Positions 6,111 through 49,882 of a DNA stretch of 64,000 nt are shown here, in pieces. Position 1 is the first letter of the stretch. The number at the start of each line of letters is the position of its first letter. The stretch is from a candidate division FCPU426 bacterium (GTDB taxonomy: Bacteria > Oederibacteriota > Muellerivitia > Muellerivitales > Muellerivitaceae), in contig CAVYSE010000003.1 in assembly GCA_963771075.1 (NCBI GenBank), positions 160,001 to 224,000 of the forward strand, written 5' to 3'. The notes below the pieces were generated by a model. It was not told the origin of the DNA, did no database searches, and worked only from the letters and a program-made list of their open reading frames with translations. A program made the translations under genes and the position numbers.

Positions 6111-6277
6111 GGCTTTTTTCTCCCCTCAAACAAACAGGCAAACCTTCTGGGATTGATCCCACACCAATCTTTATAAGCCCAACGCACCCGCAAAGTGAAT
6201 AGGGTCCAACCCGGACCTTTTTATTTAATGACTGAAAATAACCAGGTGCCTGGCCACCGTTATCCACGATTCATCTT

Positions 6278-6303
6278 GTCCATGTTGGGTCCCCGCAGTG
6301 GCC
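6278..6303. repeat. 26-bp cassette-boundary site R1 (degenerate): GTCCATGTTGGGTCCCCGCAGTGGCC
   Basis: Matches consensus GTCCA-N4-GGGTCCCC-N4-TGGAC with one arm mismatch. Confidence 0.75.
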
Positions 6304-6328
6304 AGCAGCCTTAATGAGGGTGGCAATG

Positions 6329-6601
6329 TTATTTTTTTCCGGCAACAGCCAACAAGGCCTCGTTGATGACGGTTTGGTATCCGATGCCTCTCTGTTTGCC
6401 AATTCTCTTGGCCCATTCTAAGGTTTTCGGATTGAGGCGGATTGAAACCGGCAAATAAAGCTCATGAGGCTCTTTAGTCGGTCGGCCACGCGGACGGCGC
6501 GGCTTGCCCGAGTGATGTTCGATCGCTTGCCGGTTCTTCTCCACTTCTCCGGGAGTTATCCTTCTTGCCTTGTGAAACGGAAATTCATTTGAGTTCTTCA
6601 T
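6329..6601 (-). CDS. brnA: BrnA-family antitoxin
   Basis: RGRP..VSIRL..GYQTVINEAL ribbon-helix-helix C-terminus; overlaps the toxin gene. Confidence 0.85.
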   Translation of the reverse strand: MKNSNEFPFHKARRITPGEVEKNRQAIEHHSGKPRRPRGRPTKEPHELYLPVSIRLNPKTLEWAKRIGKQRGIGYQTVINEALLAVAGKK

Positions 6602-6866
6602 AACGGTTCCTTTCCCGACGGCTTGCCGGCCTTGCGCTGATGATTCGACAGACCTGGCCTTGTAAGCGCTTGGTGAAAACGACCACTAAAATCTTTCCAC
6701 CGTCAGCTTCTCCAATCAACCATTCCCTGGATTCCAGGGTCGAGTGTTTAGGGTCAGCGGCTACCAGGGCAAAAGGATCATCAAATTCCGTAATAGCTGT
6801 TTTGAATGAAACGCCGTGTTTCTTTTGGTTGGCTTCGTCCTTGGCGAGGTTCCAATCAAATCGCAT
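6585..6866 (-). CDS. brnT: BrnT-family ribonuclease toxin (DUF497)
   Basis: FDWNLAKDEANQKKHGVSF...RIISARPASRRER. Confidence 0.9.
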   Translation of the reverse strand: MRFDWNLAKDEANQKKHGVSFKTAITEFDDPFALVAADPKHSTLESREWLIGEADGGKILVVVFTKRLQGQVCRIISARPASRRERNRYEELK

Positions 6867-6946
6867 ATTTTTAGTATATACAATAAATAAAGGTCGTCAA
6901 GGTTCGGTTTCTCATATTCGGACTATCTCTTAATAGGGTTTTAGCT

Positions 6947-6972
6947 GTTCACGATAGGTCCCCGTCGTGGAC
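6947..6972. repeat. 26-bp site R2: GTTCACGATAGGTCCCCGTCGTGGAC
   Basis: Direct match to consensus with two mismatches. Confidence 0.9.
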
Positions 6973-7002
6973 AAAAACTACAAGCCGAATACGGGTGGTC
7001 CG

Positions 7003-7440
7003 CTACCTTTTTAATTCCTCAAGTGGAAGAAGTCGCGAGTCTTCCAAGGCGGCCGTTCGGTGTCCAAGACCTTTCAAATAACCTTCGTTGGACGCAAAAG
7101 AAAGAAATGAATCCACGCTCTGCTGGCGGATAAGCGCAACCATATCCCACCGCTCGGTTTCTGGCCCAATTAGAAATTTACCACCTTTGCCGAGGAACAA
7201 TATATCTCCCCCGGTCTCACGCAAGAATGGCAAGGTATGGTCGATATAGCGTCGAAAGGCATCCGCGCCGCTGATGGGTGTTGGCGGACGAAGATCCGGT
7301 GTCGCTGAATAGTCGGCGGTTTCACGGAATCGCAGTAAGTTCAACATCACGATTTCCCCGAGGATCCTCCGCATGACGAAATCCCGTCCGGCTTCCTGCG
7401 TCACATCAAGATAAGGTTTCGTTCCATTTTTATTTGTCAT
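7003..7440 (-). CDS. DUF1330-family protein
   Basis: VMLNLLRFR..A.Y..LIGP..WD...HRTAALEDSRL. Confidence 0.8.
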   Translation of the reverse strand: MTNKNGTKPYLDVTQEAGRDFVMRRILGEIVMLNLLRFRETADYSATPDLRPPTPISGADAFRRYIDHTLPFLRETGGDILFLGKGGKFLIGPETERWDMVALIRQQSVDSFLSFASNEGYLKGLGHRTAALEDSRLLPLEELKR

Positions 7441-7500
7441 TCAAGCTTGTCCTTTTTTTAGACAGTCATTTCCAACCTAGCAGTTCAGTCTCCAGATATT

Positions 7501-7526
7501 GTCCAATGCGGGTCCCCATCGTGGAC
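7501..7526. repeat. 26-bp site R3: GTCCAATGCGGGTCCCCATCGTGGAC
   Basis: Direct match to consensus. Confidence 0.9.
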
Positions 7527-7573
7527 AGGTAATCGAATCAAATCTCGCTTTCGAGTTTCCAGCAACAAACAGT

Positions 7574-8104
7574 TTAGCGGTTCGGGAATTTTCCTTGGAT
7601 GGTTTTGATCGCCAGAAACAGCGTTTGGGGTTTGTTTGCCAACGGATGGAAACCGTATTTTTGATAAAACCGGACAGCTTGATCATCCTTGGCGTCCACT
7701 ACAACTCCGTAAATTCCAATTTCGTTTGATAAACGTTCAGCTCTCTGTAAAGCGTCTATCAAGAGCGCAATGCCAATTCCACGGCCTTGGTGCCTTTTAT
7801 CCACCGCCAATCTTCCGACCCTAATGGCAGGAGCGGGATAACGGGGGAGGCCTTTTGAATGGGGGGGCGGCAGCATTTGGGAGTCGATTTCTGAAGACAC
7901 GGCCGTGTAAAAACCCAAAACCTTCCCGCTCTCGCTTTTCATCTGCGCAACAAATGTTTTGCCGATGTTTCGTTCATGGTTTTGCCGGGCATATTTTCGC
8001 AAATATTCATTTAGCTCTAATACCCCGCAATCAAAGGAATCAAAATCCAAATGGCAGGTTATGGCTTGAATCTCGAATGCTAAAGGATTCCCTGCGGGGT
8101 TCAA
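7574..8104 (-). CDS. GNAT acetyltransferase toxin (TacT/AtaT-like)
   Basis: FDCG..LN.YL, RLAVDKRHQGRGIG acetyl-CoA motif, FYQKYGF; coupled to DUF1778. Confidence 0.9.
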   Translation of the reverse strand: MNPAGNPLAFEIQAITCHLDFDSFDCGVLELNEYLRKYARQNHERNIGKTFVAQMKSESGKVLGFYTAVSSEIDSQMLPPPHSKGLPRYPAPAIRVGRLAVDKRHQGRGIGIALLIDALQRAERLSNEIGIYGVVVDAKDDQAVRFYQKYGFHPLANKPQTLFLAIKTIQGKFPNR

Positions 8105-8376
8105 GGGCGGCTATATTTCTTGATCGCCGCTGACAAAGCCTTATTGGGACGGGGCGGATTTTCCAGTACTTTCATGAAAGAATTCCACTCATTTTCGGAA
8201 AGAGTGATGCGGCTTTGGGTCGTAAGCCCCTCCTGGGCGGCCCTTAAGGAATTTGAAAGCATGAACGCACTGAGGCTAAGGCCAAAAATCGAGGCGGCCT
8301 TTTCAAGCATGGCCTTGTCTTTCGGGCGGATGCGAATTTCAATTCGTTGTTCCCTGGATTGTGTCGCCGTTGGCAT
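8101..8376 (-). CDS. DUF1778 antitoxin (TacA/AtaR-like)
   Basis: RIEIR..KAA...SLSAF...ITLS...F...LENPPRPN. Confidence 0.9.
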   Translation of the reverse strand: MPTATQSREQRIEIRIRPKDKAMLEKAASIFGLSLSAFMLSNSLRAAQEGLTTQSRITLSENEWNSFMKVLENPPRPNKALSAAIKKYSRP

Positions 8377-8451
8377 AAAGACCTCCTAATTTCTATAAAA
8401 GAAGCATACCTCATCGTACGGATGATGTCCACACACAAGACAAAAATGGTC

Positions 8452-8463
8452 GTCCACGACGGG
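8452..8463. repeat. Left arm of split site R4 (GTCCACGACGGG)
   Basis: Joins 9973-9986 to give a perfect 26-bp site once 8464-9972 is removed. Confidence 0.85.
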
Positions 8464-9462
8464 TAGTTCTGTTCTTTTCTTCATCTTCGGCGTGAACTTC
8501 ACTACCCATTTCCCCCGGCGGTTTATCTCCATCCGGAAGTCAAACCCCAGAAACCCAAAGCTTTCGCCTTTCGTTAAGTCCACTGTCCTCGTTTTGTCCG
8601 TGTTGATTTTCAGGTCAAGTTTAACCAATTCCTCAAGTAGCCTCTGGTAGACCGCCTTCACAAGCCCTTCCCCCTGTGGGTTTCCATCCACGAGGATCAC
8701 CATATCGTCGGCAAACCTCGCATATTCGACAGGGGTGTACATCCCTTGCCGGGTCGCTTCCTTCGCCTTTTCCAGCATCTTGTCCACCTCGTTGAGGTAG
8801 AGATTCGCCAGAAGTGGGGAAACAACTCCGCCTTGGGGAACTCCTCTTTTGCCGCTGGCTTTCAGGATTAGCTTCAGCAATCTCATCACCGTTTTATCCT
8901 CAATCCTCTGCGCTACCTTCTTCAACAGCAGGTCATGCCTTACCGTATCGAAGTACGCCTTCAGATCAAGGTCGATGACTCGGGTTTTCCCCCCGACAAT
9001 TGCTTCGGCTACCCTGTTCACCGCCGCATGAGCAGTCCGCTTGGGCCGGTACCCATAAGACCCGTCTTGAAAATCAGCTTCGAAAATTGGTTCCAGGATG
9101 AGCTTCATCGCTCCCTGGACAACCCTGTCCCGAATGTTGGGTATCCCAAGAGTTCTGACCTTCCCATCTCCCTTGGGTATCTCCTTCTTCCGGTTCCGGG
9201 CCGGTCTATACGTGCCTTGGACTAGTTCACGCTGGATGCTTTCAAGAAACGGCTCTATCCCTGCTTCTTCAATGGCCTCAAATGTCACCCCGTCTATTCC
9301 AGGGGCTCCATTGTTTGACTTCGCCATCTGGTAAGCCTGTTGGAGCGCTTCCATCTTGCAAACATGCGTGTAAAGTCCCCAGAAACGCCAGTTCTTCTCA
9401 GCCTTCGCTTTGACGTATATCTCTCGTCTCAGGTCTTGCAGACTGATGGACGTCTTTTTCAT
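8464..9462 (-). pseudogene. ltrA: Truncated group II intron reverse transcriptase
   Basis: GAPGIDG, RTLGIP..DRVVQ, PQGGVVSPLLANLYL, FADD, FLGFDF; reads into the repeat arm (PVVD) and stops at 8386. Confidence 0.9.
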
Positions 9463-9972
9463 ACCGTCCCTGCCTCCCACTTTTGCCAAGAGATTTCACA
9501 ACAGCAGGGTTACTTCGCTCCACGGGAATTACCCCGCTTCTTAGCTACTTTTAACCCGTCCTACTCCCTCTTGCCTTCGACCGCTTTCCCGCATCGGGTT
9601 ATACGGCCTACCTTTTTCCAAGTATTTCTACCTGGGGCAAGGAGGGTCTCTCCAGTTGCTTGGTATGTCCTTGTCATCATGCCGTGGCTAGCACCCCGCC
9701 AGTGTGTTCCAGCGCATTGGCCATCTGGCCGCTGTTCCATGTTGCCTTCATCCCACGACGGAGGATTCGGCCACTGGGGCTATTGTTTTCGGGGCCACCT
9801 ATGCCTTCACTTTCGTTACGGCCTGACGACTCGCTCACCATCCCGAAGATGGCTTTGTCGATGGGCTTCAGGCATTAAGTTTCCCGCTTGCCTGCCATCC
9901 TAGCTAATGGGTTTTGGCTATTACCCATGCAAGTCTACCTCTTGCTGAACACACCTGCCTTTTCTGGACGCA
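8464..9972 (-). mobile_element. Group II intron, 3'-truncated (5' RNA domains plus RT; no maturase end, no domains V/VI)
   Basis: Starts (A)TGCGTCCAG on the minus strand, ~500 nt of non-coding leader, RT ORF cut off after KKRTEL. Confidence 0.85.
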
Positions 9973-9986
9973 TCCCCGTCGTGGAC
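9973..9986. repeat. Core plus right arm of split site R4 (TCCCCGTCGTGGAC)
   Basis: Complementary to the left arm at 8452-8463. Confidence 0.85.
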
Positions 9987-9990
9987 AAGC

Positions 9991-10534
9991 TTAACCAGAA
10001 CTCGATGAATATTTTTTAAGAATCGTTAATTCTTCAGGTGTAAAAAAATCAGGCCATTTCTTTTTAAATGGCAAAACAAACCCCTTATAGAACCATTTAC
10101 GATCAATTCGGGTTTTTAGCGCATCGGGCAATTCATGTATGGCATCCATATAATCTGTAACTAGACTTAGATTTGTGTTTTTGATTAAAGAAGAAGTCCT
10201 GCTAAATACATGGATGAGTGTGTCATGGTCTAATTTCGTTATGCTTCGAGGCCATGGGTAGTAATAAAGAATTTCCGTTAGTTCTTCCTGGTCTAAAGTT
10301 TGGATTTTTAAAACCCGGCAAAGTATTTTTTCCCCATGTCTCTTGTCCTGCTACACGAGATACTCGGTTATTTCCGTCGGCGAAACCATCATTCGCTTTA
10401 ATCTCTTCCAAAGCTCTCACAATCGCATTTAAATATTTAGTCTCTTCTGGCTTCGCCCTGGCCTGAACAGCCAATCGGTGCAATAGATCCAGAAAACAAA
10501 CAGAAATCATTTTTTGTTCAACTGGAGCACTCAT
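9991..10534 (-). CDS. AT-rich hypothetical protein, probably frameshifted (ORF 10223-10534 continues in other frames to a stop at ~9991)
   Basis: AGGAG RBS before ATG 10534; open frames continue downstream (…ITKLDHDTLIHVF…, …FTPEELTILKKYSSSSG*). Confidence 0.45.
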
Positions 10535-10575
10535 TAAATAATTCTCCTAAAAGAACCTCTTTATCGTTTTTCCTT

Positions 10576-10601
10576 GTCCAATCCGGGTCCCCGTCGTGGA
10601 C
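10576..10601. repeat. 26-bp site R5: GTCCAATCCGGGTCCCCGTCGTGGAC
   Basis: Direct match; followed by AAGCTTAACC, as R4 is. Confidence 0.9.
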
Positions 10602-10613
10602 AAGCTTAACCGC

Positions 10614-10966
10614 TTATTCACGTACCCTCACCCGTCCTTTTTCAATAATCCACAACCGTTTATCTACCTGTTCTTTGGACAACAGATCCAATACGGGGCG
10701 GAAAAGTTCGACCATGGTTGGTTTGTCCTGGCGGTCAGACCGGATCACCATGATTCCAGGATATTTTTCCGGCGGGTAAGCCCGGATATCCGAAAAATCA
10801 AGGTCAGAGGTAATGAAGGCGCGGTTTTCGGCCAAGCAAACGACGGCTAAATTCGTATCAGGATGGCCGGTTAATTCTTGGTCTTTTACCGTAAGGGCGT
10901 CATGACCAGCTTGGATTAAAAGATGTTTGATCTCGAAAGGCAGGTTTTCATCGATTTTGAACTTCA

Positions 10967-10967
<1 letters not shown>
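10614..10967 (-). CDS. DUF5615 PIN-like toxin (VapC45-like)
   Basis: MKFKIDENLP..GHD..ITSDLDF. Confidence 0.85.
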
Positions 10968-11287
<320 letters not shown>

Positions 11288-11335
11288 TTAAACAACCCCT
11301 AAAGGCTAAAACCGGCTCTAATAGCACTATTACCT

Positions 11336-13314
11336 GCAGAGTAGAGCGCTGGCGCGTATGCCTTAGAGTACGGTGGCGAATCCAACCCTTTCGGATTGGG
11401 CCTCAGTCCGGCTCTCATCACCACGTTTCCAGCGCCCCCTCATCAAACCGTACGTGACCTTTTCGATCATACGGCTTTCCGACAACCTTTCAACCGGCAG
11501 CATTCAAGGCAAAAGCTGGAATCCAGTTCAAACCAAGGCGTTTCACTTCCTCGATCGACCATGTTCGTCCTTCCCAGGCGTACTTATGCCTCCGAAACAA
11601 AGTCAGCCTTTCGAGTACGTAAAATTGAAGCTTGGAAAAGTATGGCTGGCTGTCCCCAATTCGGAAATAGTTGGCCCACCCCCTTAACACCGGGTTCAAA
11701 GCCTTCGCTACATCCTCCATTGGAGATAAGAGCCGCTCTCGGCCCGCCGTCATCTGCTTCACTTTCTCGGCGATTTTCTTCATGGCCTTCCGGCTCGGCC
11801 AGCTCAGGCAACAGGTCTTACCCAATCCTACCACCGGCATACCTACTCGAAAGTGGAACCCAAGGAAGTCAAACCCTTCCTTCCCAGGCCCCATTTCCAC
11901 CAGCCGTGTCTTTTCGGGGTGCAGTTCAAGCCCTAGTCGTCCCATCAATTCCTTGATGACTTCCAGGCTCTTTTCCGCATGGGCTTGGCTTCCGCACAAC
12001 ACCACAAAATCGTCGGCGTAGCGCACCAGCCTACCCAGTTTCCTGTGCCTCTTATTCCAAACCTTGTCCAGCAAGTGAAGGTAAACATTGGATAACAGCG
12101 GTGAGATCACCCCGCCTTGCGGTGTCCCTCGGAGAGTCGGCGTAAGCCTTCCTTCCTCAAACACACCCGCCTTCAGCCACCCTCGGATCAGTTTCAAAAC
12201 CTTCCGGTCACTGATCCTCTGGCGCACCAGCACCATCAGTTTGTCGTGGTCGATGGAATCGAAATACTTCCGAATATCTCCATCCACCACCCATCTGTAC
12301 CCGCCATTGATCCACTTCTTGATCTCCCGGTGGGCCTGCTGGGCTCCGCGTTTTGGCCGAAATCCAAACGAGCCTTCCAGAAAGTCCGCCTCAAAGATGG
12401 GTTCCACCACCTTCCGGCAAGCCGCTTGAACTACCCGATCCCGAATTACCGGGATTCCCAACGGTCTCTTGCTTCCATCAGGCTTGGGTATTTCCACTCG
12501 TCTCACAGGTTTAGGCAGATACTTCCCAGCTTTGAGTTCTTCCTGGATGCCCTTCAGGAATGGAATAATTCCCACCTTCTCTTCGATCCATTCCAGCGTT
12601 TCCCCGTCCACTCCTCCTTGGCCTTTATTAGCCTTCACCTGTTTCCATGCCGCTGTCAGGACATCCCATCGGGTCATCCTGTCATGCAGTACATGAAATC
12701 TCCGGCTTGGGCTCCTCTTGGCCGCTCGGTATAGCGCCCTTTGAAGGGTTCGCGCCTTGTCTTCGGAGTTGTTGGCCCTTTGGGGCATGCTCCAGCGCCT
12801 CCCTTTTGAAGGTTGCTTGGTTGAAGCAGGGGTCCTTCCCTCCAGGTGGTTTTGTTGTCCACCCTTCACAGGTATTGTGACCCCCTCCGACTTCCTCCCG
12901 CCCTTGCCCCTTTTCGGTTTTAGCCTTATAGCGGCAAGTCTTTTGGCGGGTAGGATCTCCCAGGTTGCTTGCAAAGCCTTTCCAGCATTCCGTTCCCCAT
13001 ACGCCGGAGGACTTTCCCCGCTTGCTCCAGATTCTTCAGCGGGATCGTGGCCTTCGCCGGTAGACACGCGGCTCGGCATCCTCTTGCACCTTTCGGTGTC
13101 CCATTCACGACGCGGCAGGATTCACTTGATGTTGCGGACTGCTAGATTGTTCCCTCACTGAATGAGGTTTATGACCCCGTTTCGGGCAGAACCTCTCGGT
13201 CCTACGCCGGGGGCTGACTTCCAGGCTCTCTGGCGATTACCTGGTCAGGATTTGGGCTGGCCCTCTTCGGCCTACTCCCTCACCTGCTGGCTCTACAAAC
13301 CTTCGCTGGCACGA
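11336..13314 (-). mobile_element. Complete group II intron
   Basis: Domain V AAGCCGTATGATCGAAAAGGTCACGTACGGTTT (~11446-11478), domain VI ending CCAGCGCTCTACTCTGC, intact RT; ends uncertain by a few nt. Confidence 0.9.
11490..12788 (-). CDS. ltrA: Group II intron RT/maturase without endonuclease domain
   Basis: RPLGIP..DRVVQ, PQGGVISPLLSNVYL, YADD, domain X LNPVLRGWANYF. Confidence 0.95.
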   Translation of the reverse strand: MPQRANNSEDKARTLQRALYRAAKRSPSRRFHVLHDRMTRWDVLTAAWKQVKANKGQGGVDGETLEWIEEKVGIIPFLKGIQEELKAGKYLPKPVRRVEIPKPDGSKRPLGIPVIRDRVVQAACRKVVEPIFEADFLEGSFGFRPKRGAQQAHREIKKWINGGYRWVVDGDIRKYFDSIDHDKLMVLVRQRISDRKVLKLIRGWLKAGVFEEGRLTPTLRGTPQGGVISPLLSNVYLHLLDKVWNKRHRKLGRLVRYADDFVVLCGSQAHAEKSLEVIKELMGRLGLELHPEKTRLVEMGPGKEGFDFLGFHFRVGMPVVGLGKTCCLSWPSRKAMKKIAEKVKQMTAGRERLLSPMEDVAKALNPVLRGWANYFRIGDSQPYFSKLQFYVLERLTLFRRHKYAWEGRTWSIEEVKRLGLNWIPAFALNAAG

Positions 13315-13315
13315 T

Positions 13316-13341
13316 GTCCACGAAGGGTCCCCGTTGTGGAC
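13316..13341. repeat. 26-bp site R6: GTCCACGAAGGGTCCCCGTTGTGGAC
   Basis: Direct match to consensus. Confidence 0.9.
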
Positions 13342-13386
13342 GGCAAATTCACTTCAAAATAGTAATAGTGGCCTGACACCTTTTTC

Positions 13387-13842
13387 TTAGTCTAAAATCT
13401 TTCGCATTTGCCTGCAATCTTCCGCAATCCCGGTAAGCTCATCCGCATCCCAGTCATAAAATTCCCAGCCCAATTTTTTGTAGAATCCCAAAGCCTCAGG
13501 CGCGGCATTCACATATAAAGTCTTAATCCCAAAGTCGCGCGCATACTTTTCCACCAAAGAAGATAATTGGCGTCCGTGACCACTCCTTTGGTAATCATCT
13601 GATATGGCAACCAGTCGTACCGCGCCATAGCCATCTCTAAAATCATCTAAGCGGGTAGTACCAACAGGGATGTTATTGAGCAACAATAGAAGCGGGTGAT
13701 GATTCGGCAGATATTCATCCTCATGCATTTCATCGTAGTCTTGTTTTCCACGATTTTCCCACAGCACTTTATGGCGAATGTCGTGATATGCCTGCCAATG
13801 GTTCAAAGCGGTAACTTTTATGAGTTCATAGTTTTTTTGCAT
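13387..13842 (-). CDS. GNAT N-acetyltransferase
   Basis: VRLVAIS..YQRSGHG, NA..A.GFYKKLGW. Confidence 0.85.
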   Translation of the reverse strand: MQKNYELIKVTALNHWQAYHDIRHKVLWENRGKQDYDEMHEDEYLPNHHPLLLLLNNIPVGTTRLDDFRDGYGAVRLVAISDDYQRSGHGRQLSSLVEKYARDFGIKTLYVNAAPEALGFYKKLGWEFYDWDADELTGIAEDCRQMRKILD

Positions 13843-13915
13843 TTTCGAACCTAACAAACCGTAATTCAAAAGTATTTTTAAAAAAGGGACAGACCAACAT
13901 TAACCATTTTTCCCT

Positions 13916-13941
13916 GTCCAATGCGGCTCCCCATCGTGGAC
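13916..13941. repeat. 26-bp site R7: GTCCAATGCGGCTCCCCATCGTGGAC
   Basis: One difference from R3. Confidence 0.9.
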
Positions 13942-13953
13942 AGGTCCATCCTG

Positions 13954-14376
13954 TTATTGCCCACTCTTGACTACTTTGGTGATCTTAACAGAGTCGATGC
14001 AGACAAATTGCATGACCCCTTTTTGATAGGGCGTACAGGGGCATACCGTGAAGATTCCATAAACCTCAGCGCCCAAATCATCCCTGAAAATCGCATCTAA
14101 ATTTTCTGGAGTGGGAGCTTCACCACGCACACCCAATACCCTCTGGGTTCCAATCATCCAAATCTTCATTGATGTAAGATTGGCGCCAAAACGTGCCCGT
14201 CCCCTAAAAGAAAAGCATTTTCCAACAACCCTGGGGTCGCTATGACAGGGGCCTTTGAATTCCATGTAGGAGTCTACTGTCGGGGTGGCAGTGGCACTAT
14301 CAGCACTGACGGGGTGTTTCAACCCCACGCACAAAAGAAGAAGAGTTATAGAAATAATATTTATTTTTTTCATCAC
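13954..14376 (-). CDS. Secreted Cys-containing hypothetical protein
   Basis: N-terminal signal peptide; C..CF.FRGR..CP.TP...MQFVCI. Confidence 0.7.
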   Translation of the reverse strand: MMKKINIISITLLLLCVGLKHPVSADSATATPTVDSYMEFKGPCHSDPRVVGKCFSFRGRARFGANLTSMKIWMIGTQRVLGVRGEAPTPENLDAIFRDDLGAEVYGIFTVCPCTPYQKGVMQFVCIDSVKITKVVKSGQ

Positions 14377-14399
14377 GTCTCACTTCTCCAATTTTGTCT

Positions 14400-14425
14400 G
14401 TCCACGATGGGTCCCCATCGTGGAC
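14400..14425. repeat. 26-bp site R8 (perfect arms): GTCCACGATGGGTCCCCATCGTGGAC
   Basis: 12-bp perfect inverted arms around TC. Confidence 0.95.
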
Positions 14426-14430
14426 AAGGA

Positions 14431-14787
14431 TTAAGCCCTGCGAACCCGAACCTTTTGATTTGTGGCTACGACATTGCAACCAGCCCAAGTGGAGACATCT
14501 TCACTTTCAAAAATCTCCACAATGCGTTTAAACAGGTCTTCGCGGCTAGGATCAATAAGTCGGATGAGTAGAACGCCATGGTGGGTTCCCGGGGAATGGC
14601 TTCGTATGTCGGAGAAATACAAATCCTGTGATACTAGAAAGCGCTTGGCTTCCTGGGCGGCCTTCCAAACGCTTGGATCGTCCTTGCCCTTCAGGCTCTC
14701 TTGGAGGACGGTATCCACGTCATGGCCGAGCCGGGTAAGGGGTTCACTTAAATCGGCGGGAAGGTTCTCATCCAGCTTTATTTTCAT
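14431..14787 (-). CDS. DUF5615 PIN-like toxin
   Basis: MKIKLDENLP..GHDVDTV; paralog of 10614-10967. Confidence 0.85.
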   Translation of the reverse strand: MKIKLDENLPADLSEPLTRLGHDVDTVLQESLKGKDDPSVWKAAQEAKRFLVSQDLYFSDIRSHSPGTHHGVLLIRLIDPSREDLFKRIVEIFESEDVSTWAGCNVVATNQKVRVRRA

Positions 14788-14796
14788 GTGGTGGAA

Positions 14797-15033
14797 TTAG
14801 ACGGTTGGGACGGCGGGAACGGGCAGGTCTTCCTCAGCAGAAGATGCGGCATAAGAAATGACGGAGGTTACCGCCTCACGTGTTAACGAGGGAAAAGATT
14901 TAAGCACTTGATCCATGCTGTCACCGGCGGCAAGGCTGGCTAAAACAGTCCTAAGAGTTACCCTCGTGCCTTTAATGACGGGTTGGCCGTTACAGATTTT
15001 TGGGTCTCTAACGATAAAGTCCGTGTGATTCAT
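14797..15033 (-). CDS. DUF433 antitoxin
   Basis: DPKICNGQPVIKGTRVT...FPSLT. Confidence 0.9.
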   Translation of the reverse strand: MNHTDFIVRDPKICNGQPVIKGTRVTLRTVLASLAAGDSMDQVLKSFPSLTREAVTSVISYAASSAEEDLPVPAVPTV

Positions 15034-15159
15034 AACCCCTCCTCATCAACTGAAGTTATTTTAGGCATGATGCCATGGGGGAACAAGTGGCTGTGTAGTA
15101 AGTGGCCCTTATGCAATATAACCAGCCCAAAAGGAGGTATATTTACAATCAATTTAGGT

Positions 15160-15185
15160 GTCCACGATGGGTCCCCATCGTGGAC
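15160..15185. repeat. 26-bp site R9 (identical to R8)
   Basis: GTCCACGATGGGTCCCCATCGTGGAC. Confidence 0.95.
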
Positions 15186-15230
15186 TAGCTTCAACGTCAG
15201 GTGTCGGAAATAACTTTCATGGGATCGGGT

Positions 15231-16934
15231 TCAACGGATCACTAGGATCTTCAGGATTTTTGACGACTGGACCGGGCCGGTGACCTGGACCCTCAAGTAA
15301 TAAAGCCCGTTGGCCACGGGTGAGGCCCAAGAGTCTTTCAAATTCCAAGACAAAATCGTATTAGTGCCGGAGACGGATTGGGGATGATCCAGGATTTTGC
15401 GGTAAGCCGTCGTGAAAACGCTCCATTCGATCATGGAATCGGCGGGAAACCACAGGGGAATAAGAACCGGCCCGTTACCGCTGGGGTTGGGATAGGGGTT
15501 GCCGACCATCACGCTCGTAACGACCGGGATTGCCGTGGCGGTGGAAGTGTTAGCTGGCCCCGGCGTGTCCGTGGGTGTACCCAATGGCGTAGCCGTCGAC
15601 GTGTTCGTGGGGCTCGGCGTGGCGGTGGGTGTTCCCGTGGCACTATTGGAAGCCGTTGGCGTCGGACTGTTCGTGGCCGTTTGAGTCGGCGTTTCCGTGG
15701 AGGTAGGAGTACCCGTATCTATGGAAGAAACGGTATAGACCGGAGTGGAAGTCCAGCTGGCGGTGAGGGACGCCGTCCCAGTGGGTGTCATAGAACCTGT
15801 CGGAGTCTGGGAGGTTGTCGCGCTTGGCGTCATCGTACCCGTGGGGGTAAAGGATAAGGTGGAAGTCGATGTGAAGGAGGCGGTGTTGGAAGGCGTGGTG
15901 GGCAGGGTCGCGGCCCAGGTGGGAGTGGGGGTGACCGTGAAGGAAGAAGTTGGCGTTAGGGTGAGGGTCGGGCTGGGTGTCGCGGTGGAGGTAGCGGTCG
16001 GGGTCGAGGTCAGGGTGGGCGAGGGGGTGGGGGTATCCGGTTCGTAGGCCCGCACGTAATCCACCAGCATGGTCTGGGGAAAGGATGTGGTGGCGTCCGG
16101 TTTGCCGGGCCAGTTCCCGCCCACGGCCATGTTCAACAGGAAAAAGAAGGTGTTGTTGAATTCGTAGGTGCCCCCGGCGGAGGCGGCACCGGCGGAAGTC
16201 TGGGTCTCATAAAGCGTATCGTCCACGTAAAACTGCACCTGGTTGGCCTGCCAAAGGATCCCGAAGGTGTGGTAGGCGTTGTGGTAAAGCGCCCCGGCCG
16301 GAAGCGTGTAGATGGCGCTGGGGTTCCAGTTGGGCGCGTGCAGGGAGCCGTGGTTGTTCCCCTGGTCCGCGGGGTTGCCGTTGTAGGTGGCGGGGTTGCC
16401 GATGTTCTCCATGATGTCCATCTCGCCGCAGTTCGGCCAGGCGGTGCCGGAGTTGATGCTGGTGCCCAGCATCCAAAAGGCCGGCCAGATGCCGTCGCCA
16501 TAGGGCATTTGGATTCGCGCCTCCATGTAGCCGTACTGGAAGGTGACGCCCTGGAAACCCGACGCGTTCGACAAGAGGCGCGCGGAAGTGTAACGCCCCA
16601 CCGTGCCGTAGTTGGCGTTGCCGGGAGTGGTATCAATGGCGATGATCGCGAGGGATTTGCCGTCGGTGGCGTTGGGATCGGAGACGATTTGGGCGTTGGC
16701 GGTGCTGTTGGTGTAGTTTTCCAGCTCGTTGTTGCCCCAGCCCGAATCGCCCGTGTTGTAGGTCCAGTTGGAAGAATTGGGGGCGCTTCCCACGGTGCCG
16801 TTGAATTCATCGCTCCAAACCTGGCTGTAACCGGCGGGCGCGGCTGAGCCAAGGCCGGCCATGGCCCAAAAGGCCAGGACCGGTGGAAGCAACAATAACC
16901 TGAGGGAAAATTGATTTTCGGAAGGTTGTTTCAA
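15231..16934 (-). CDS. Secreted GH16 beta-1,3-glucanase with Thr/Pro-rich linker and C-terminal sorting-like domain
   Basis: WSDEF, WPAFWM, catalytic EMDIME, NMAVGGNWPG; TPT repeats; PYPNP...NGLYY..KILVIR. Confidence 0.9.
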   Translation of the reverse strand: MKQPSENQFSLRLLLLPPVLAFWAMAGLGSAAPAGYSQVWSDEFNGTVGSAPNSSNWTYNTGDSGWGNNELENYTNSTANAQIVSDPNATDGKSLAIIAIDTTPGNANYGTVGRYTSARLLSNASGFQGVTFQYGYMEARIQMPYGDGIWPAFWMLGTSINSGTAWPNCGEMDIMENIGNPATYNGNPADQGNNHGSLHAPNWNPSAIYTLPAGALYHNAYHTFGILWQANQVQFYVDDTLYETQTSAGAASAGGTYEFNNTFFFLLNMAVGGNWPGKPDATTSFPQTMLVDYVRAYEPDTPTPSPTLTSTPTATSTATPSPTLTLTPTSSFTVTPTPTWAATLPTTPSNTASFTSTSTLSFTPTGTMTPSATTSQTPTGSMTPTGTASLTASWTSTPVYTVSSIDTGTPTSTETPTQTATNSPTPTASNSATGTPTATPSPTNTSTATPLGTPTDTPGPANTSTATAIPVVTSVMVGNPYPNPSGNGPVLIPLWFPADSMIEWSVFTTAYRKILDHPQSVSGTNTILSWNLKDSWASPVANGLYYLRVQVTGPVQSSKILKILVIR

Positions 16935-21778: not shown

Positions 21779-23945
21779 CGTCATCGTAGAGCCGAATGAA
21801 ACGTCCCCGCAAAAGCGTTTCCCGCTACCCCGCCGATCGATTCATCCCCGTGTACGCGGGGAACACACCCCCTCCTGGAAAGCGTACTGCGTGACCATCG
21901 GTTCATCCCCGCGTACGCGGGGAACGTTCAACATCTAAAACAATTTGCTCAACCCAGTCCGGTTCATCCCCGCGTACGCGGGGAACGTTGGCCTGTGCAA
22001 TTGGGGGAAAATGTATCCCTCGGTTCATCCCCGCGTACGCGGGGAACGTAAGCCAAGTTCAGGGCTTTTGTTTTACGGGCACGGTTCATCCCCGCGTACG
22101 CGGGGAACGTGGTCCGGGGACAACCTTCTTTTACGCACAAATCGGTTCATCCCCGCGTACGCGGGGAACGTTTAATTAATTAACCTAACTTTCTCTAAAA
22201 ACCCGGTTCATCCCCGCGTACGCGGGGAACGTTTGCATAGGCCAAAGCCTAAGACTGAAAAGACCGGTTCATCCCCGCGTACGCGGGGAACGTAAGGCCT
22301 TCATCCAGACCAACCCGGGTTGGGGCGGTTCATCCCCGCGTACGCGGGGAACGTAAAGGCATTTGATTGCGCGGGAAATCAATATACGGTTCATCCCCGC
22401 GTACGCGGGGAACGTCATTTCTTCTAAATCGGACAACGGTAAACCATCGGTTCATCCCCGCGTACGCGGGGAACGTTACATCCTCCCGTTAACAACGTAT
22501 TCAAGAGCCGGTTCATCCCCGCGTACGCGGGGAACGTCTAGTAATGAGGCATTAAATGAATTGGTTTTGCGGTTCATCCCCGCGTACGCGGGGAACGTTA
22601 CAATGTGGCAACCGCGGCCTCGATTACCGGCGGTTCATCCCCGCGTACGCGGGGAACGTCGATACTAACTCATGCAAATACCGGCAATCACCGGTTCATC
22701 CCCGCGTACGCGGGGAACGTACTGATTCTGAAATTCCTGTATCGTCTATTTCCGGTTCATCCCCGCGTACGCGGGGAACGTGATGCTTTGGCTGGCCGGA
22801 ACAACTGCTGGACCGGTTCATCCCCGCGTACGCGGGGAACGTAAAAGAGAGAGTTAACCGAAACGTTTTCCATCCGGTTCATCCCCGCGTACGCGGGGAA
22901 CGTAGTCAAGCGCACTCCGAACCGCCGCTCGGTTTCGGTTCATCCCCGCGTACGCGGGGAACGTTGTGAGGGCCGGCGAAAATAGGCCCGCTAAAGCGGT
23001 TCATCCCCGCGTACGCGGGGAACGTGACGCTCAATTTTTCCTAGACAACTTGGATTCCGGTTCATCCCCGCGTACGCGGGGAACGTGTTTTAGCTAAGTC
23101 TGATTTAACATCTTATGCCGGTTCATCCCCGCGTACGCGGGGAACGTGTCTAGGACAAATTGAGGCATCATAATCGCTCACGGTTCATCCCCGCGTACGC
23201 GGGGAACGTTCAGTGGACTCCACCTTGTGCTCCACGGACGCGCGGTTCATCCCCGCGTACGCGGGGAACGTTTGCTGAGTATCGTCTCGATCTCTGTCAC
23301 GAGCGGTTCATCCCCGCGTACGCGGGGAACGCTATCCTTGAGAATTGAGGCGAGGCATCTTGTATCCGGTTCATCCCCGCGTACGCGGGGAACGTTGGGG
23401 TATGCTAGGGTATGACAATTAATCTCGGTTCATCCCCGCGTACGCGGGGAACGTTAGACCCTTTTGAATTCCGACCGGAAAAATTCCGGTTCATCCCCGC
23501 GTACGCGGGGAACGTGACTGATACCCACAAGTTTTATGGCGAAGGACCGGTTCATCCCCGCGTACGCGGGGAACGTCGGTGTTCACACGTTGCAGCTGGA
23601 GCGCTGGACGGTTCATCCCCGCGTACGCGGGGAACGTTCCAATCGACTTTGCCAATTCGCAAATACTTCTCGGTTCATCCCCGCGTACGCGGGGAACGTC
23701 TGTCATTCGGCCATTATGCGTACCATCGAGTCGGTTCATCCCCGCGTACGCGGGGAACGTTTGCCTTGGTTTTGGTGCCATTATCGGCCTACCCGGTTCA
23801 TCCCCGCGTACGCGGGGAACGTTTCACCATCTTCTGCTGGGCCTCGTCCTTGGCCGGTTCATCCCCGCGTACGCGGGGAACGTTAGAAACTCTCTCCCTT
23901 AAATTTAACTACCCCGGTTCATCCCCGCGTACGCGGGGAACGTAA

Positions 23946-25000
23946 CCCGAGTTCCATAAGTAAGTGCAACACTCAGTGCAAGAAGAAAGCCGCCTCCATA
24001 GGATAGGCGGCCATGAAAAAAAACTACAAGCATTTAAGCGTTGAAGAAAGAGATCACTTGGCCGTTTTGAAGGGGAAAGGTCATGGGGTCCGGGATATCG
24101 CCAGAATCCTCAAGCGTTCCCCATCCACCATCTCCCGCGAACTCAAGCGCAACGCCCCAACCATCCGCACGGGTTATTACTTAGCCCACCGTGCCCACCT
24201 ACGATATATCGTCCGTAACCAGCAACGGGCACGCCGTTTACGCCTGAAAACAAAGCGAATTCGTGCCTACGTCCGCCGTCAATTGAAACGAGGTTGGTCT
24301 CCTGAACTCATTTCGGGTCGTTGGAGCTGCCTACATCCCAAGCAAACCATTGGCCCCGAAGCCATCTACCAGTGGATTTACATTGAGGCCACTGATTTGA
24401 TCTCTTACCTCGTTCGACACCACCGGCAACGTCTCTCTTTCGGCCACAGCCGTAAGCACGCCAAAAACCATATTCCAGGCCGTGTTTCCATCGACAAAAG
24501 GCCCAAGGCCGTCAACCAACGCAAGCAGTTCGGCCATTGGGAAACCGACACCATGGTCTCCCGTGAAAGCAAAGTCGCCATGCGGGCTCTCGTCGAACGT
24601 CAAAGCCGTTTTTCCAAGTTGGGAAAGCTCAAACGAAAAACAGCTGCCCAAATGAGTCACAGCCTCAATCGTACTTTAGGCCGCTTCCCTCAAGAAGCTC
24701 GTCTGAGTTTGACCTACGACAATGGAACCGAAAACACCAACCACCTGGAAACCAACCGCGTGCTTGGTACAAAATCCTTTTTCGGTGCGCCTTTCCACAG
24801 TTGGGAAAAAGGCACTGTAGAAAATACCATTGGTCTTGTTCGCCGTTATTTGCCCAAAAAGACTGACCTTGCTAAAGTATCTCTCAAAGAATTCAAAGCC
24901 ATCGAAAGATGGCTCAATCACAGGCCCAGAAAATGTTTGGGTTTTAAAACTCCGGCGGAAGTCTTCCGGCGAAGTGTTGCACTTACTCCGTGAATTCAGC
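23946..25000 (+). mobile_element. IS30-family insertion sequence
   Basis: Imperfect 28-bp terminal IRs sharing AGTAAGTGCAACACT; TAA(C) target duplication. Confidence 0.92.
24013..24993 (+). CDS. IS30-family transposase
   Basis: HLSVEER..STISRELKRN, GHWETDT, YDNGTE, WEKGTVENT, LNHRPRKCLGFKTP. Confidence 0.95.
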   Translation: MKKNYKHLSVEERDHLAVLKGKGHGVRDIARILKRSPSTISRELKRNAPTIRTGYYLAHRAHLRYIVRNQQRARRLRLKTKRIRAYVRRQLKRGWSPELISGRWSCLHPKQTIGPEAIYQWIYIEATDLISYLVRHHRQRLSFGHSRKHAKNHIPGRVSIDKRPKAVNQRKQFGHWETDTMVSRESKVAMRALVERQSRFSKLGKLKRKTAAQMSHSLNRTLGRFPQEARLSLTYDNGTENTNHLETNRVLGTKSFFGAPFHSWEKGTVENTIGLVRRYLPKKTDLAKVSLKEFKAIERWLNHRPRKCLGFKTPAEVFRRSVALTP

Positions 25001-25553
25001 TAACTTCACCTGAGCGATACTGATTTTTTTAAACGGTTCATCCCCGCGTACGCGGGGAACGTTCAGGGGTGACGTTTCCGGAATCAGGGTGACCGGTTCA
25101 TCCCCGCGTACGCGGGGAACGTTCGGTGATCGCCCAATTTCACCATTCCGCCTTCGGTTCATCCCCGCGTACGCGGGGAACGTAGGTCTTATCCTCCTTT
25201 CCCTTGACTCTCTTTCGGTTCATCCCCGCGTACGCGGGGAACGTAGACCAAGATTGAGCCACACCTTCTTCCTAGCCCGGTTCATCCCCGCGTACGCGGG
25301 GAACGCTGGCATGGCAATACGGAAATGGGGACAGATCAAATCGGTTCATCCCCGCGTACGCGGGGAACGTTGTCACACAGGCGGGAGCGGCGACGACATC
25401 TCCGGTTCATCCCCGCGTACGCGGGGAACGTTTCTTCTGTTTCGGCATGAGCAGGTTCCTCCTCGGTTCATCCCCGCGTACGCGGGGAACGTGGCTTGTA
25501 ACTGATTCATTAGTCACGACCTCCCGGTTCATCCCCGCGTACGCGGGGAACGT

Positions 25554-25617
25554 ACTTATAAACGGCCATTTAACGCGTCATTTTTCCGTCAAACGGCTCC
25601 GTAGCCCTAAAAACGCC
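25554..25617 (-). promoter_or_regulatory. Short CRISPR leader
   Basis: 64 bp between the cas2 stop and the first non-degenerate repeat. Confidence 0.6.
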
Positions 25618-26826
<1,209 letters not shown>

Positions 26827-26830
<4 letters not shown>

Positions 26831-27315
26831 TTGGGGCCTTCCTGCGCTTTTGGCAGTTCCTCAAGCTTGTACCGGACATACTTGCCGCCCCCCACCCGCA
26901 CCAGGCGTTTGCCGTGCATCATCCGAAAGACGTGATTTAAGAAGAAATAGTTGTCCCCCCTTCGGGTCACCCCTTGGCAGAGGTCCAAAAGCCGATTCAA
27001 GTTATAAATTAGGGTACTTTTGGGAACGCCCAGTTCACGTGCTAAATCCCCTGGGGCGATTTCCCCCTCACGTTCAATGCAATCTATGATCTTTTTCCAA
27101 TATTCCATGGCATCCTCATGCGGGCGTCTTCCTTTTTTTCTGTTGAGATAGGCTTCTGTTTTAGGTTTGGGCGCCTTGTCTTTGGTGATGGATTGGATGG
27201 GTTGCGCCAAGGGAGGTGATTCAACAGGCGGGTTTGGCTTTGGGTGTGCAGCTTGGGTAGTATTTAAGCCAAAGAGACCCTTGATTAAACTTTTAATAGA
27301 CGGTTCATCTGCCAT
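26827..27315 (-). CDS. Winged-HTH domain protein translationally coupled to cas1
   Basis: GEIAPGDLARELGVPKSTLIYNLNRL; wing LVRVGGGKYVRY; ATGA overlap with cas1. Confidence 0.7.
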
Positions 27316-27337
27316 ACACCCACCATCCTTTCACCTT

Positions 27338-27809
27338 CTCACGTCCAATTTTAGCCGTGTTGTCGCTTTAATTGGACGCGAGGCAGTTTAAATGTCGTTT
27401 AAACGAGCCTTACATTCCCAAGACAAAACAGACCTTTGTCTTATTAGAAAAAATCCAATGTTTTCCGGCCCAGGTTATCCATCCGTCACGTCCAATTTTA
27501 GCCGCGTTACAGTTTTAATTGGACGCGAGACGCGTTTATCAACCCCTACCGTTCCATACGACTCCATCCCTTTGCCATCTCACGTCCAATTAATACCGCA
27601 TTGCGGACAAAATTGGACGCGAGACACCCTGCATAAACCATCTCAAACACCCAACTTGTGCAAGAGGCCCTTGCACAATTGACCGGTTGAGCTAAGCCGA
27701 AACAAAAACCCACATATACTTGAGATTCCGGGGTAAAAACCCCTCATGTCCGGGAAAGCGGCGGATAAACTTGCCAATTAATTCCGAAATACGGAAATAA
27801 TTGGCAAGT
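27338..27809. repeat. Four inverted-repeat boxes CCAATT-N19-AATTGG (27338-27382, 27485-27529, 27579-27623, 27769-27809)
   Basis: Three 45-bp copies (C/G)TCACGTCCAATT-N19-AATTGGACGCGAG; fourth has ACTTG/CAAGT outer arms and the same spacing. Confidence 0.85.
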
Positions 27810-27832
27810 AAGCCCCGGAAAACGACCGTGAC

Positions 27833-28894
27833 TTAAACCCGGTAGGATACACGGCTTTCCATGAGCCGTTGGGTTTTCATGATTTCCCCGGCCAAGGTAT
27901 CCTCATCCGGCAGGGCCATACGGTATTCCGCCGCCATGATCTTGTTGGGTAGACCCTCCAAAGCGTATTTAGCGACTGCCTCGTCCCTTTGGGCGCACAA
28001 GATCAGGCCTACCGGGGGGTTTTCCTCCTCCCGGGCCCAGTGTTCCCGGGCGTAATTGAGGTACATGTGCATCTGGCCCGCGTCGGCGTGGGTGAACTTG
28101 CCGATTTTCAGGTCGATCACCACCAAGCAACGCAGTTTTCGGTGGAAGAAGAGCAAATCCACCCGGTACCATTCGTCGCCGATTCTCAGCCGTTTTTGGC
28201 GGCCCACGAAGGTGAAGTCCCCGCCCAGTTCCATCAGGAAGTATTCCAACTGCCGTATGAGGGCTTCCTCCAGGTCGTTCTCGGAATACTCGTCTTTCAG
28301 CCCCAAAAACTCCAAAACCAGGGGATCTTTCAGTTCCGTCTCGGGCGTTGTTTCCTCTCCCGCTTGTGCCTTTTCGCCCTTGCGGAGCATGGAAGCCTTG
28401 TTTTTGGACATGGACGTGCGCTCGTAAAACAGACTGGAAACCTGCCGGTCCAACTGCCGCACGCTCCATCCGCCCCGCAGGGCCTCGGTTTCATAAAAGG
28501 CCCTGGCCTTTGGTGAACGGCTTTTCCGGACCAACAGAACGTAATGAGACCAAGAAAGGGGAAAAACACCGGCTAATTGGACAGCCTCTAATTTCCGAGA
28601 CAGCGTCTCGGAAATCTTTTCGGATGAATAAGCCATATAGAAAAGCCGCATGGTTTCAAGGTTATCGTGTGAAAACCCCCGCCCAAACTGATTGGTCAAA
28701 TCCTCTCCCAACTGTTTGAGCAAAGCTTCCCCATACCCGGCCCTTTCCTTACCGCCCTGCTCAAATTCCACGATCCGGCGGCCCACCAGCCAATAGGTGG
28801 CGGTCATGACCGAATTGACGGTCCGGGCGGAGGTCCGACGGGCTTCGGCCAGGTAATCGGCGACTTCCTTCAGGAGGACATCATAATTTTTCAT
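27833..28894 (-). CDS. yhcG: YhcG/DUF1016 PD-(D/E)XK nuclease-domain protein
   Basis: YWLVGRRIVE..GYG, LSWSHY, KDPLVLEFLGL, VDLLFFH..IDLK..GQMHMY. Confidence 0.93.
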   Translation of the reverse strand: MKNYDVLLKEVADYLAEARRTSARTVNSVMTATYWLVGRRIVEFEQGGKERAGYGEALLKQLGEDLTNQFGRGFSHDNLETMRLFYMAYSSEKISETLSRKLEAVQLAGVFPLSWSHYVLLVRKSRSPKARAFYETEALRGGWSVRQLDRQVSSLFYERTSMSKNKASMLRKGEKAQAGEETTPETELKDPLVLEFLGLKDEYSENDLEEALIRQLEYFLMELGGDFTFVGRQKRLRIGDEWYRVDLLFFHRKLRCLVVIDLKIGKFTHADAGQMHMYLNYAREHWAREEENPPVGLILCAQRDEAVAKYALEGLPNKIMAAEYRMALPDEDTLAGEIMKTQRLMESRVSYRV

Positions 28895-29526
28895 GCAGGA
28901 ACCACCGAAAAGAGGCCTAATCCCATTGCTTTACCCCTACCAATGCCGGTTTTAACGGCGGTTTTAAACTTCTCCGGTTCCTTTACCGTAAGAATTCCGT
29001 CAAAAAGGACAGAAAATGCGTGAATGGCACCGCCATTACGCCTATCACCATGGGCCATCTTTTCTTCCGAGACATGGATTGATACCAGGGAAAAACCGTG
29101 GTTCTCCCCCTTCCTGGCAAGCCATTTTTCCTGTTCCACCAAGCGCAATAGACCCAGGCGTTTCCCATTGTGGATATCGGTTTTGCTGGGATTGGCCCGC
29201 AATCGGTAACGAAACCTTTGCCCTATTGAAAGGGAACCCAATTTCAACCGACCGGTTAAATCAATCGGAGAATCTGGATCGCGGGCGAACCAATCCTTAA
29301 CCCCGATTCGTGACCAATCAGGTGTTGAACGGCTTTGGACCAAAACCCTTGGATTCCCTTTCGGGTCTGTTTCCGGCTCCAAACGCCAAAGGATCTCCCC
29401 TGGTGGACATTTCTTTTCAGGTGTCGAAAACGCCCGGCAAAGGGTGGAATGCATCTCATAAGGATCGGCCAAATCGCGCCGGGCTTCCTTGCAGCGAAGG
29501 TTGAGGTGCAACCTATGCAGGAGCAT
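28891..29526 (-). CDS. cas6e: Cas6e (Cse3)
   Basis: DPYEMH, YRLRANP, GIGRGKAMGLGL. Confidence 0.95.
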   Translation of the reverse strand: MLLHRLHLNLRCKEARRDLADPYEMHSTLCRAFSTPEKKCPPGEILWRLEPETDPKGNPRVLVQSRSTPDWSRIGVKDWFARDPDSPIDLTGRLKLGSLSIGQRFRYRLRANPSKTDIHNGKRLGLLRLVEQEKWLARKGENHGFSLVSIHVSEEKMAHGDRRNGGAIHAFSVLFDGILTVKEPEKFKTAVKTGIGRGKAMGLGLFSVVPA

Positions 29527-30181: not shown

Positions 30182-30183
30182 AG

Positions 30184-49762: not shown

Positions 49763-49814
49763 AAAAACCTCCTTTTTCAGATACCCAAATTCGAAGCCAA
49801 TCCTTCTATACGTT

Positions 49815-49840
49815 GTCCGCGAACGGTCCCCAACATGGAC
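49815..49840. repeat. Isolated 26-bp site R10: GTCCGCGAACGGTCCCCAACATGGAC
   Basis: Same length, orientation and T..A flanks as R1-R9; two mismatches at conserved positions. Confidence 0.75.
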
Positions 49841-49882
49841 AAGTAACATTGAATGAATTATACATCCCAGATATACCGGTAT

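Follow-up and report, generated by a model that had tools for sequence, protein, structure and literature searches.

Integrons and integrase-less clusters, with the integrase IntI and the sites attI and attC, hold co-oriented cassettes of one or two genes, many of which are toxin-antitoxin pairs. How a cassette is born is, to our knowledge, still an open question for integrons. Sites with a 12-2-12 geometry are known from the Hin/hix invertases. Among the large serine recombinases (LSRs), the accessible part of a deletion study of the LI integrase (PMC3783163) reports a 13-bp contact area for the recombinase domain, a roughly 25-fold weaker binding after deletion of the zinc domain and, after deletion of the coiled coil, excision between all four site pairs, indifferent to site type, with no intermolecular integration. 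According to the available part of one LSR survey, candidates were restricted to proteins of 400-650 aa (PMC10083194), so that enzymes of 277 aa would have been passed over in it.

Here, we describe an array of gene cassettes in a 64,000-nucleotide stretch of DNA (the window) from the genome of a bacterium of candidate division FCPU426 (G000). We posit, with a probability of roughly 70%, that the array is part of a non-directional cassette system that resembles integrons and stems from a large serine recombinase targeted to tRNA-Asn.

The cassette array and its site

The array spans positions 6278-15185 and contains nine site copies (R1 to R9), between which one or two small genes are encoded on the opposite strand (Table 1). 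Its cargo comprises four toxin-antitoxin-type pairs, one GNAT, two group II introns and three ORFs that could be assigned to no family; an Rfam search returned group II intron families only. The DUF433 and DUF5615/PIN-like genes between R8 and R9 likely form a toxin-antitoxin pair. The isolated left arm ahead of the truncated intron is probably the other half of R4.

Table 1. Features of the cassette array in the window and the lone site outside it.
Feature	Position	Strand	Remark
R1 site, left array end	6277..6304	+	5 arm mismatches
R1-R2 cassette: BrnT + BrnA pair	6329..6866	-	Pfam; 89% end-to-end copy with other neighbours on G000 C21
R2 site	6946..6973	+	2 arm mismatches
R2-R3 cassette: 145-aa ORF	7003..7440	-	matches no family
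R3 site	7500..7527	+	arm scan; 3 arm mismatches
R3 cassette: TacA-like antitoxin + GNAT toxin	7574..8376	-	Pfam
Isolated left arm + T	8452..8464	+	intron homology from 8465, centre of core
Truncated second group II intron	8465..9972	-	RT 8386-9489 reads out through half-site
R4 core + right arm	9973..9987	+	intron homology stops at 9972, edge of core; R4 has 6 arm mismatches
R4-R5 cassette: 103-aa ORF	10223..10534	-	matches no family
R5 site	10575..10602	+	arm scan; 3 arm mismatches
R5 cassette: second DUF433 + DUF5615 pair	10614..11278	-	Pfam; 94% copy at G002 locus L143
Complete group II intron (RT/maturase 11490-13079)	11335..13315	-	near-identical copies at other G000 sites
R6 site	13315..13342	+	left edge abutted by group II intron
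R6-R7 cassette: GNAT acetyltransferase	13387..13869	-	Pfam
R7 site	13915..13942	+	4 arm mismatches; left arm ends TGGC-like GC
R7-R8 cassette: 140-aa ORF	13954..14376	-	no Pfam/NCBIfam match
R8 site: perfect 13-2-13 (T + 12-bp arm + TC + 12-bp arm + A)	14399..14426	+	
R8-R9 cassette: DUF433 (14797-15033) + DUF5615/PIN-like (14431-14787)	14431..15033	-	Pfam
R9 site, right array end	15159..15186	+	perfect 12-bp arms; last base T, not A
Lone decayed site outside array	49814..49841	+	

R8 (14400-14425) and R9 (15160-15185) both read GTCCACGATGGG-TC-CCCATCGTGGAC with 12 of 12 arm pairs, a motif for which 100 shuffles gave 0 expected matches; the perfect arms around TC that an initial sequence-only reading had described are thereby confirmed. 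TC lies on the + strand in all nine array copies (at 6278, 6947, 7501, 9961, 10576, 13316, 13916, 14400 and 15160) and likewise in the lone copy at 49815. The core was also surveyed in 482 non-redundant sites from G000, nine relatives and loci among the matches listed, 410 of which, from ten or more genomes, were kept at no more than four arm mismatches. It is TC in 391 of the 410 and one base off in each of the other 19 (TT 9, CC 5, AC 2, GC 2, TA 1). The window copies share a single direction; across the larger set the core is not strictly invariant.

The proposed 12-2-12 layout is right in its inverted arms around a 2-bp core and too short by one base on each side: the T before the site (205/230) and the A after it (211/230) are conserved like arm bases, so that the site is better described as 13-2-13 (28 bp). 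No conserved flank was found outside 28-30 bp in the site flank frequencies. Sites vary more in their left arm (1.15 mismatches on average) than in their right (0.47), with peaks at position 18 and over positions 6-9 of the left arm. This corrects the earlier view that variation is concentrated in a 4-nt internal block. R1 is decayed as had been stated, whereas R2 has fewer mismatches than R4, R7, R3 and R5. A -35-like hexamer coincides with the end of the site arm; a promoter within the site was considered and rejected, as the flank frequencies contain no fixed -10.

Outside the array, to judge by its ORFs, the window holds a Type I-E-like CRISPR-Cas locus (23400-37503), whose repeat array is broken by an IS30-like gene and whose cas genes are interleaved with other ORFs. 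Long Thr/Pro-rich repeat proteins are encoded at 15231-16934 and 61556-63772. The former, which contains a GH16 domain, has a homologue in G020 that sits between cassette sites.

Distribution across genomes

An arm-only scan that ignored the core found 93 sites with at most five arm mismatches in G000, against 0 in one shuffled genome. Arrays are present on many G000 contigs, with none at the tRNA-Asn gene (C11:233668). Within an array all sites point the same way; G000 departs from this only in a few loose clusters and at an inverted duplication. The inverted duplication comprises two cassettes (C26:138322-143720), lies near a contig end beside an intron and is possibly an assembly artefact. 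Within the family, 21 of 30 further genomes carry the site, whose sequence is kept across nine genera; of 68 genomes from families elsewhere in the phylum, none does. Among the matches listed, exact sites were also present in records titled, for example, uncultured proteobacterium and Ca. Firestonebacteria.

A short serine recombinase adjoins the site

The sole PF00239 match in G000 (96.7% complete) is a 277-aa serine recombinase that is encoded at C8:80002-80835, outside the window, and consists of the Resolvase (PF00239) and Recombinase (PF07508) domains only. It belongs to a clade of 19 short proteins (275-283 aa), in which S20, R18, D89, R90 and R93 are invariant (19/19), which points to a conserved short form rather than a broken copy. 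None of the 19 proteins has the zinc ribbon and coiled coil that most longer relatives possess. By its catalytic residues, the enzyme is a predicted serine-nucleophile recombinase, and it likely cuts the site. The top fold matches of its predicted structure, a low-confidence model (pLDDT 65.5), are serine integrases. The 13-bp half-site is as long as the contact area published for the LI recombinase domain.

The G000 gene ends 15 bp before a site, and a site lies 9-37 bp downstream of all six scorable intact short genes. These include the gene of G075, which served as a held-out test after the pattern had emerged; on a seventh contig, too little downstream DNA is present for scoring. Within G000, a site lies downstream of 4/4 gene copies or remnants. 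A site or half-site likewise follows ten 3' remnants, drawn outside G000 from array loci only. At the 78 loci of full-length relatives, no site was found within seven mismatches. To judge by sequence, the gene neighbours in G000 look like conjugative-element genes. A degenerate site (C8:80941) is located 90 bp past the recombinase-adjacent site of G000, and in its left part it is similar to the recombinase gene tails of the tRNA-Asn type at L032 and L038. At locus L290 of G075 (C17:5887-12921), the recombinase gene is flanked by two sites of the same orientation at a distance of 7 kb, and the module that carries it may thus be excised as one large cassette.

Probable origin of the site from a tRNA-Asn gene end

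In the nearest full-length relatives, at 50-60% identity, the gene terminates in a tRNA 3' end that is read backwards. A tail could be scored at 56 of the 78 relative loci: 12 correspond to tRNA-Asn and 5 to tRNA-Gln(TTG), with TC in the register of the core, and the others to tRNA-Gln(CTG) with TG (12), to other tRNAs (2) or to no called tRNA (25). In a midpoint-rooted tree of 33 rows, drawn from groups picked off a quick tree of 108, the short clade forms one group (100/99), and its sister (95/88) consists of four full-length enzymes with WLP tails, one of them at tRNA-Asn.

The tRNA-Asn of the host matches arm and core at 11 of 14 positions, in the exact register that precedes the discriminator and CCA; among the 44 tRNAs, the runner-up scores 8. 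Compared with viral contigs, the right half of the site gave seven matches, of which four are tRNA-Asn ends, two at 14/14, and one is a detached recombinase-type tail that also has A at position 27. The ancestral crossover was bounded to a 6-bp block that contains the core. According to these tRNA-end matches, TC likely corresponds to the final two bases of the acceptor stem of tRNA-Asn, and the whole site to a mirrored version of this half. By its similarity to these gene ends, the site is likely a descendant of the attachment site that the enzyme's full-length ancestor used at tRNA-Asn.

Proposed mechanism

We propose that one subunit of the 277-aa enzyme would bind each 13-bp half via its recombinase domain and that the enzyme would make a double-stranded cut at TC, whose asymmetric overhang would place all cassettes in one orientation. 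Because zinc ribbon and coiled coil are absent, there would be no attP/attB distinction in this proposal, and any two sites would recombine. Cassettes may thus be excised, reshuffled and reinserted without a fixed entry point, and arrays that carry no recombinase gene, such as that of the window, would be served in trans by the gene on a mobile module that comes and goes. The main objection is raised by the LI deletion data; the cassettes described here do move between replicons.

With these data in mind, the sites may be of the serine type and yet be worked by, or dependent on, a full-length large serine recombinase or helper, the short gene being a partner, a regulator or a passenger. As far as the LI study is available, loss of either domain cripples binding or integration, and paired recombinases (CcrA/B, DsiA/B) are described in the part of PMC3146451 considered here. 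An intact short gene is missing from 17 of the 22 site-bearing genomes of the family, several of which carry full-length relatives, and G003 (99% complete) and G018 have sites and no short-gene match. Presence in 5/22 site-bearing against 0/9 other genomes is a weak and non-independent association. We nevertheless consider this reading unlikely, as G000 encodes no other PF00239 match and as the short clade keeps all catalytic residues and the adjoining site, which the full-length relatives lack.

Cassette mobility and point of exchange

Our set contained 336 cassettes with a median length of 798 bp, and the ORF was on the GA strand in 305 of the 323 that bear one. Twenty-five pairs of cassettes were shared end to end. 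Their neighbours were unrelated in 22 pairs (in one, a single side was visible); the remaining three were accounted for by the inverted duplication (two) and one shared context. Some shared cassettes are 99-100% identical between genera. An 82% copy of the R8-R9 cassette is found in G002 between sites with other neighbours.

The point of exchange was located by comparing pairs that share one flank only, after removal of intron and mini-element flanks. Pairs sharing the left flank (at least 95%, 13 families) showed 0 differences at positions 0-16 and 6 at positions 17-22, whereas among pairs sharing the right flank (15 families) the left arm differed 35 times, the core once and the right arm 4 times. 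The exchange falls between positions 12 and 17, around TC, and each arm moves with its own cassette. One and the same identical cassette was found joined to left arms ending in GG or in CC. Perfect half-sites with a degenerate far arm (n=42) retain the core in 30 cases (28 GA, 2 TC), and in 14 of these 30 the match is lost directly after the core, as a 2-bp overlap predicts. A central cut accounts for two observations only if mutation followed: the four right-arm differences in the right-flank pairs, and one left-flank pair with a rare right arm in common. The sequence-only reading of a crossover site with a directional dinucleotide, most likely that of a serine recombinase, is supported, and breakpoints between strains and genomes fall inside the site.

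Could the repeats be passive, with homologous or slippage-type recombination acting in the 28-bp repeat and no dedicated recombinase? Since the arms are shared, any exchange inside the repeat would yield clean cassette ends, and the short gene is missing in many genomes. Such recombination is very improbable given that the exchanges cluster at positions 12-17 despite very different left arms, that the half-sites end at the core and that the sequence is kept across nine genera.

No excision junction, cassette circle or cassette-skipping joint was seen in the fragmentary contigs of seven runs. An empty-site allele was likewise not found, because the genes flanking the locus are not syntenic in the five relatives searched. 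The truncated intron of the window is bounded by core junctions on both sides (8452-8465 and 9972-9987). It is possible that this 1.5-kb foreign piece was captured between two half-sites and represents a snapshot of cassette birth.

Two further features of the half-sites were observed. In 12 of the 14 that break directly after the core, the next base is G. Many orphan half-sites read arm-GA-GG on the gene strand and so yield a GGAGG ribosome-binding motif (G000 C9:3679, L127, L152 and L153).

Introns and mini-elements at the sites

In G000, the complete group II intron of the window (11335-13315) and 11 further 5' ends of this intron are located on the TC side of the site in eight cases and on the GA side in four; by adjoining either edge, the intron ignores the direction of the core. 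A second intron lineage inserts within the right arm. A 33-base hairpin mini-element occupies a fixed right-arm position, with a 4-base duplication, in 13/13 copies found (G000 C3:148679, C5:98265, C11:133965, C26:73647 and nine more). IS110 matches are also present in G000.

Independence of the arms and absence of polarity

The proposed covariation of the arms was not borne out, either pair by pair or over the whole arm. Mean arm pairing was 10.139, compared with 10.135 when right arms were shuffled within genomes (p=0.46), and perfect palindromes numbered 73 observed and 73.3 shuffled. Counts for CGAC/GTCG against CGAT/ATCG (position 9 x 18) were 168, 47, 96 and 32 (Fisher p=0.51), and a single one of the 14 arm pairs reached p=0.026, uncorrected. 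The compensatory CGAC/GTCG pair ascribed to R4 is present in no intact window copy; it appears only on joining the left arm at 8452-8463 to 9973-9986, which are split by the group II intron fragment. R8 and R9 are perfect through the assortment of common arms.

Independent arms are predicted by sequence-specific binding with half-site exchange and not by a hairpin substrate, which bears on whether an integron-type or HUH enzyme acts on a single-stranded, attC- or REP-like site. R8 and R9 do fold at -13 kcal/mol, the sites are targeted by group II introns and the hairpin mini-element, and G000 has 20 Y1 transposase matches. The other seven window copies fold weakly (z above -2), however, and of 596 arm substitutions all but 24 abolish Watson-Crick pairing. 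The best TIGR02249 (IntI) match of G000 reached 41.8 bits against a cut-off of 265, the attC boxes RYYYAAC and GTTRRRY occurred together at 2 of 403 sites, and 12 of the 16 long Y1 genes are more than 20 kb from a site or on site-less contigs, with four within 6 kb. With no covariation in the arms either, we regard a hairpin site as very improbable as well.

Also very improbable, and already largely refuted, is a tyrosine-recombinase (Xer/dif-like) site as in the pdif modules of Acinetobacter: the 28 bp with T/A flanks can be parsed as 11-6-11, as the sequence-only reading had noted, and toxin-antitoxin pairs also occur in pdif modules (PMC13141974, in the part considered), but the GG and CC arm ends on one identical cassette fall inside the would-be spacer, the spacer is lost after the core in 14/30 half-sites, all eight tyrosine recombinase matches are more than 26 kb from a site or on site-less contigs, the dif-like palindrome of G000 beside a tyrosine recombinase is a different sequence, and the sites are direct, not alternating. 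This palindrome, a perfect 11-6-11 unrelated to the cassette site, is located at G000 C6:114166, just upstream of the tyrosine recombinase gene.

A further part of the earlier interpretation was that arrays are polar and that cassettes enter near R9. Across 41 arrays with at least four sites each (279 sites), mismatches do not follow position: the pooled rho is -0.04 (p=0.53), with a negative sign in 22 arrays and a positive one in 18. The recombinase gene, where present, lies to the left of the site next to it, on the side that corresponds to R1. Both results speak against entry near R9. Weak hints in its favour are the window array alone (rho -0.58, p=0.052) and the mean position of 0.69 (p=0.16) of seven recently shared cassettes, which were scored in longer arrays, four more being in arrays too short to score. 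A contig of run X1, from a near-identical strain, corresponds to 14447-15185 with one difference and continues into other DNA right of R9, which has no match in G000 or the other array loci compared. This breakpoint could reflect the same cassette sitting in another array.

Comparison with known systems

If our reading of a serine-integrase-derived cassette system is true, an integron-like gene collection has arisen independently from a serine integrase, with parts unrelated to those of the integron, and by a traceable route: from a tRNA-targeting island, via loss of the zinc-ribbon and coiled-coil half, to a mirrored tRNA half-site. The clade would also provide a direct test of the standing model, because engineered enzymes that lack these domains bind poorly and cannot integrate, and the clade seems to manage. 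The half-sites offer a handle on cassette birth, and the 277-aa recombinase, the 28-bp site and the 2-bp core of programmable type may together form a candidate tool. In the literature searched (mostly open journals and main texts), no description of this cassette system was found, and the sections of PMC12884075 and PMC11795197 consulted mention no natural enzyme without a zinc ribbon.

The arrays resemble integrons in their small co-oriented cassettes, their toxin-antitoxin pairs, the recombinase gene with an adjacent odd site, the dispersed arrays that lack the gene and the group II introns in sites. They differ in the absence of IntI, attC boxes and hairpin covariation, in having one conserved 28-bp site with exchange at its centre, in genes that point to the 3' end of the recombinase gene and in the lack of an age gradient. 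Unlike in REP/RAYT systems, the repeats do not flank the Y1 genes, most of which are far from any site.

With the LI/A118 serine integrases, as far as the published parts considered here describe them, the system shares the catalytic and recombinase domains, the central dinucleotide and a half-site of footprint length. It departs from them in the 277-aa enzyme without zinc ribbon or coiled coil, in about 90 sites per genome and in a single symmetric 28-bp site type with independently assorting arms in place of distinct attP and attB of 40-50 bp. Tandem islands, some of them without an enzyme, are also described for the ssrA islands of Dehalococcoides with DsiB and for SCC/Ccr (PMC3146451, available part). 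In the sister enzymes, as for DsiB in the ssrA islands of that account, the 3' end of the gene overlaps the attachment site at the 3' end of an RNA gene. Compared with the ssrA islands as presented there, the sites are off the tRNA locus and symmetric, the units have a median of 0.8 kb and the enzyme is shortened; the anchoring of ssrA-GI and SCC at a single chromosomal target gene is absent.

The pdif modules, in the portion of PMC13141974 considered, are likewise small, shuffled at short sites and loaded with toxin-antitoxin cargo; their distinct XerC/XerD arms, 6-bp spacer and alternating orientation have no counterpart here. With hix, the site shares short inverted arms around an asymmetric dinucleotide, and it differs from Hin/hix in its direct repeats, its 13-2-13 layout and an LSR recombinase domain in place of the small helix-turn-helix tail. 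We lean, if only slightly, towards regarding the arrays as a third natural cassette system beside integrons and dif modules, in which the direction-control half of the enzyme was shed, the tRNA half-site was mirrored, cassettes are shuffled across genera by a Cre-like synapsis free of coiled coils, and the joining of a half-site to foreign DNA at GA may create new cassettes.
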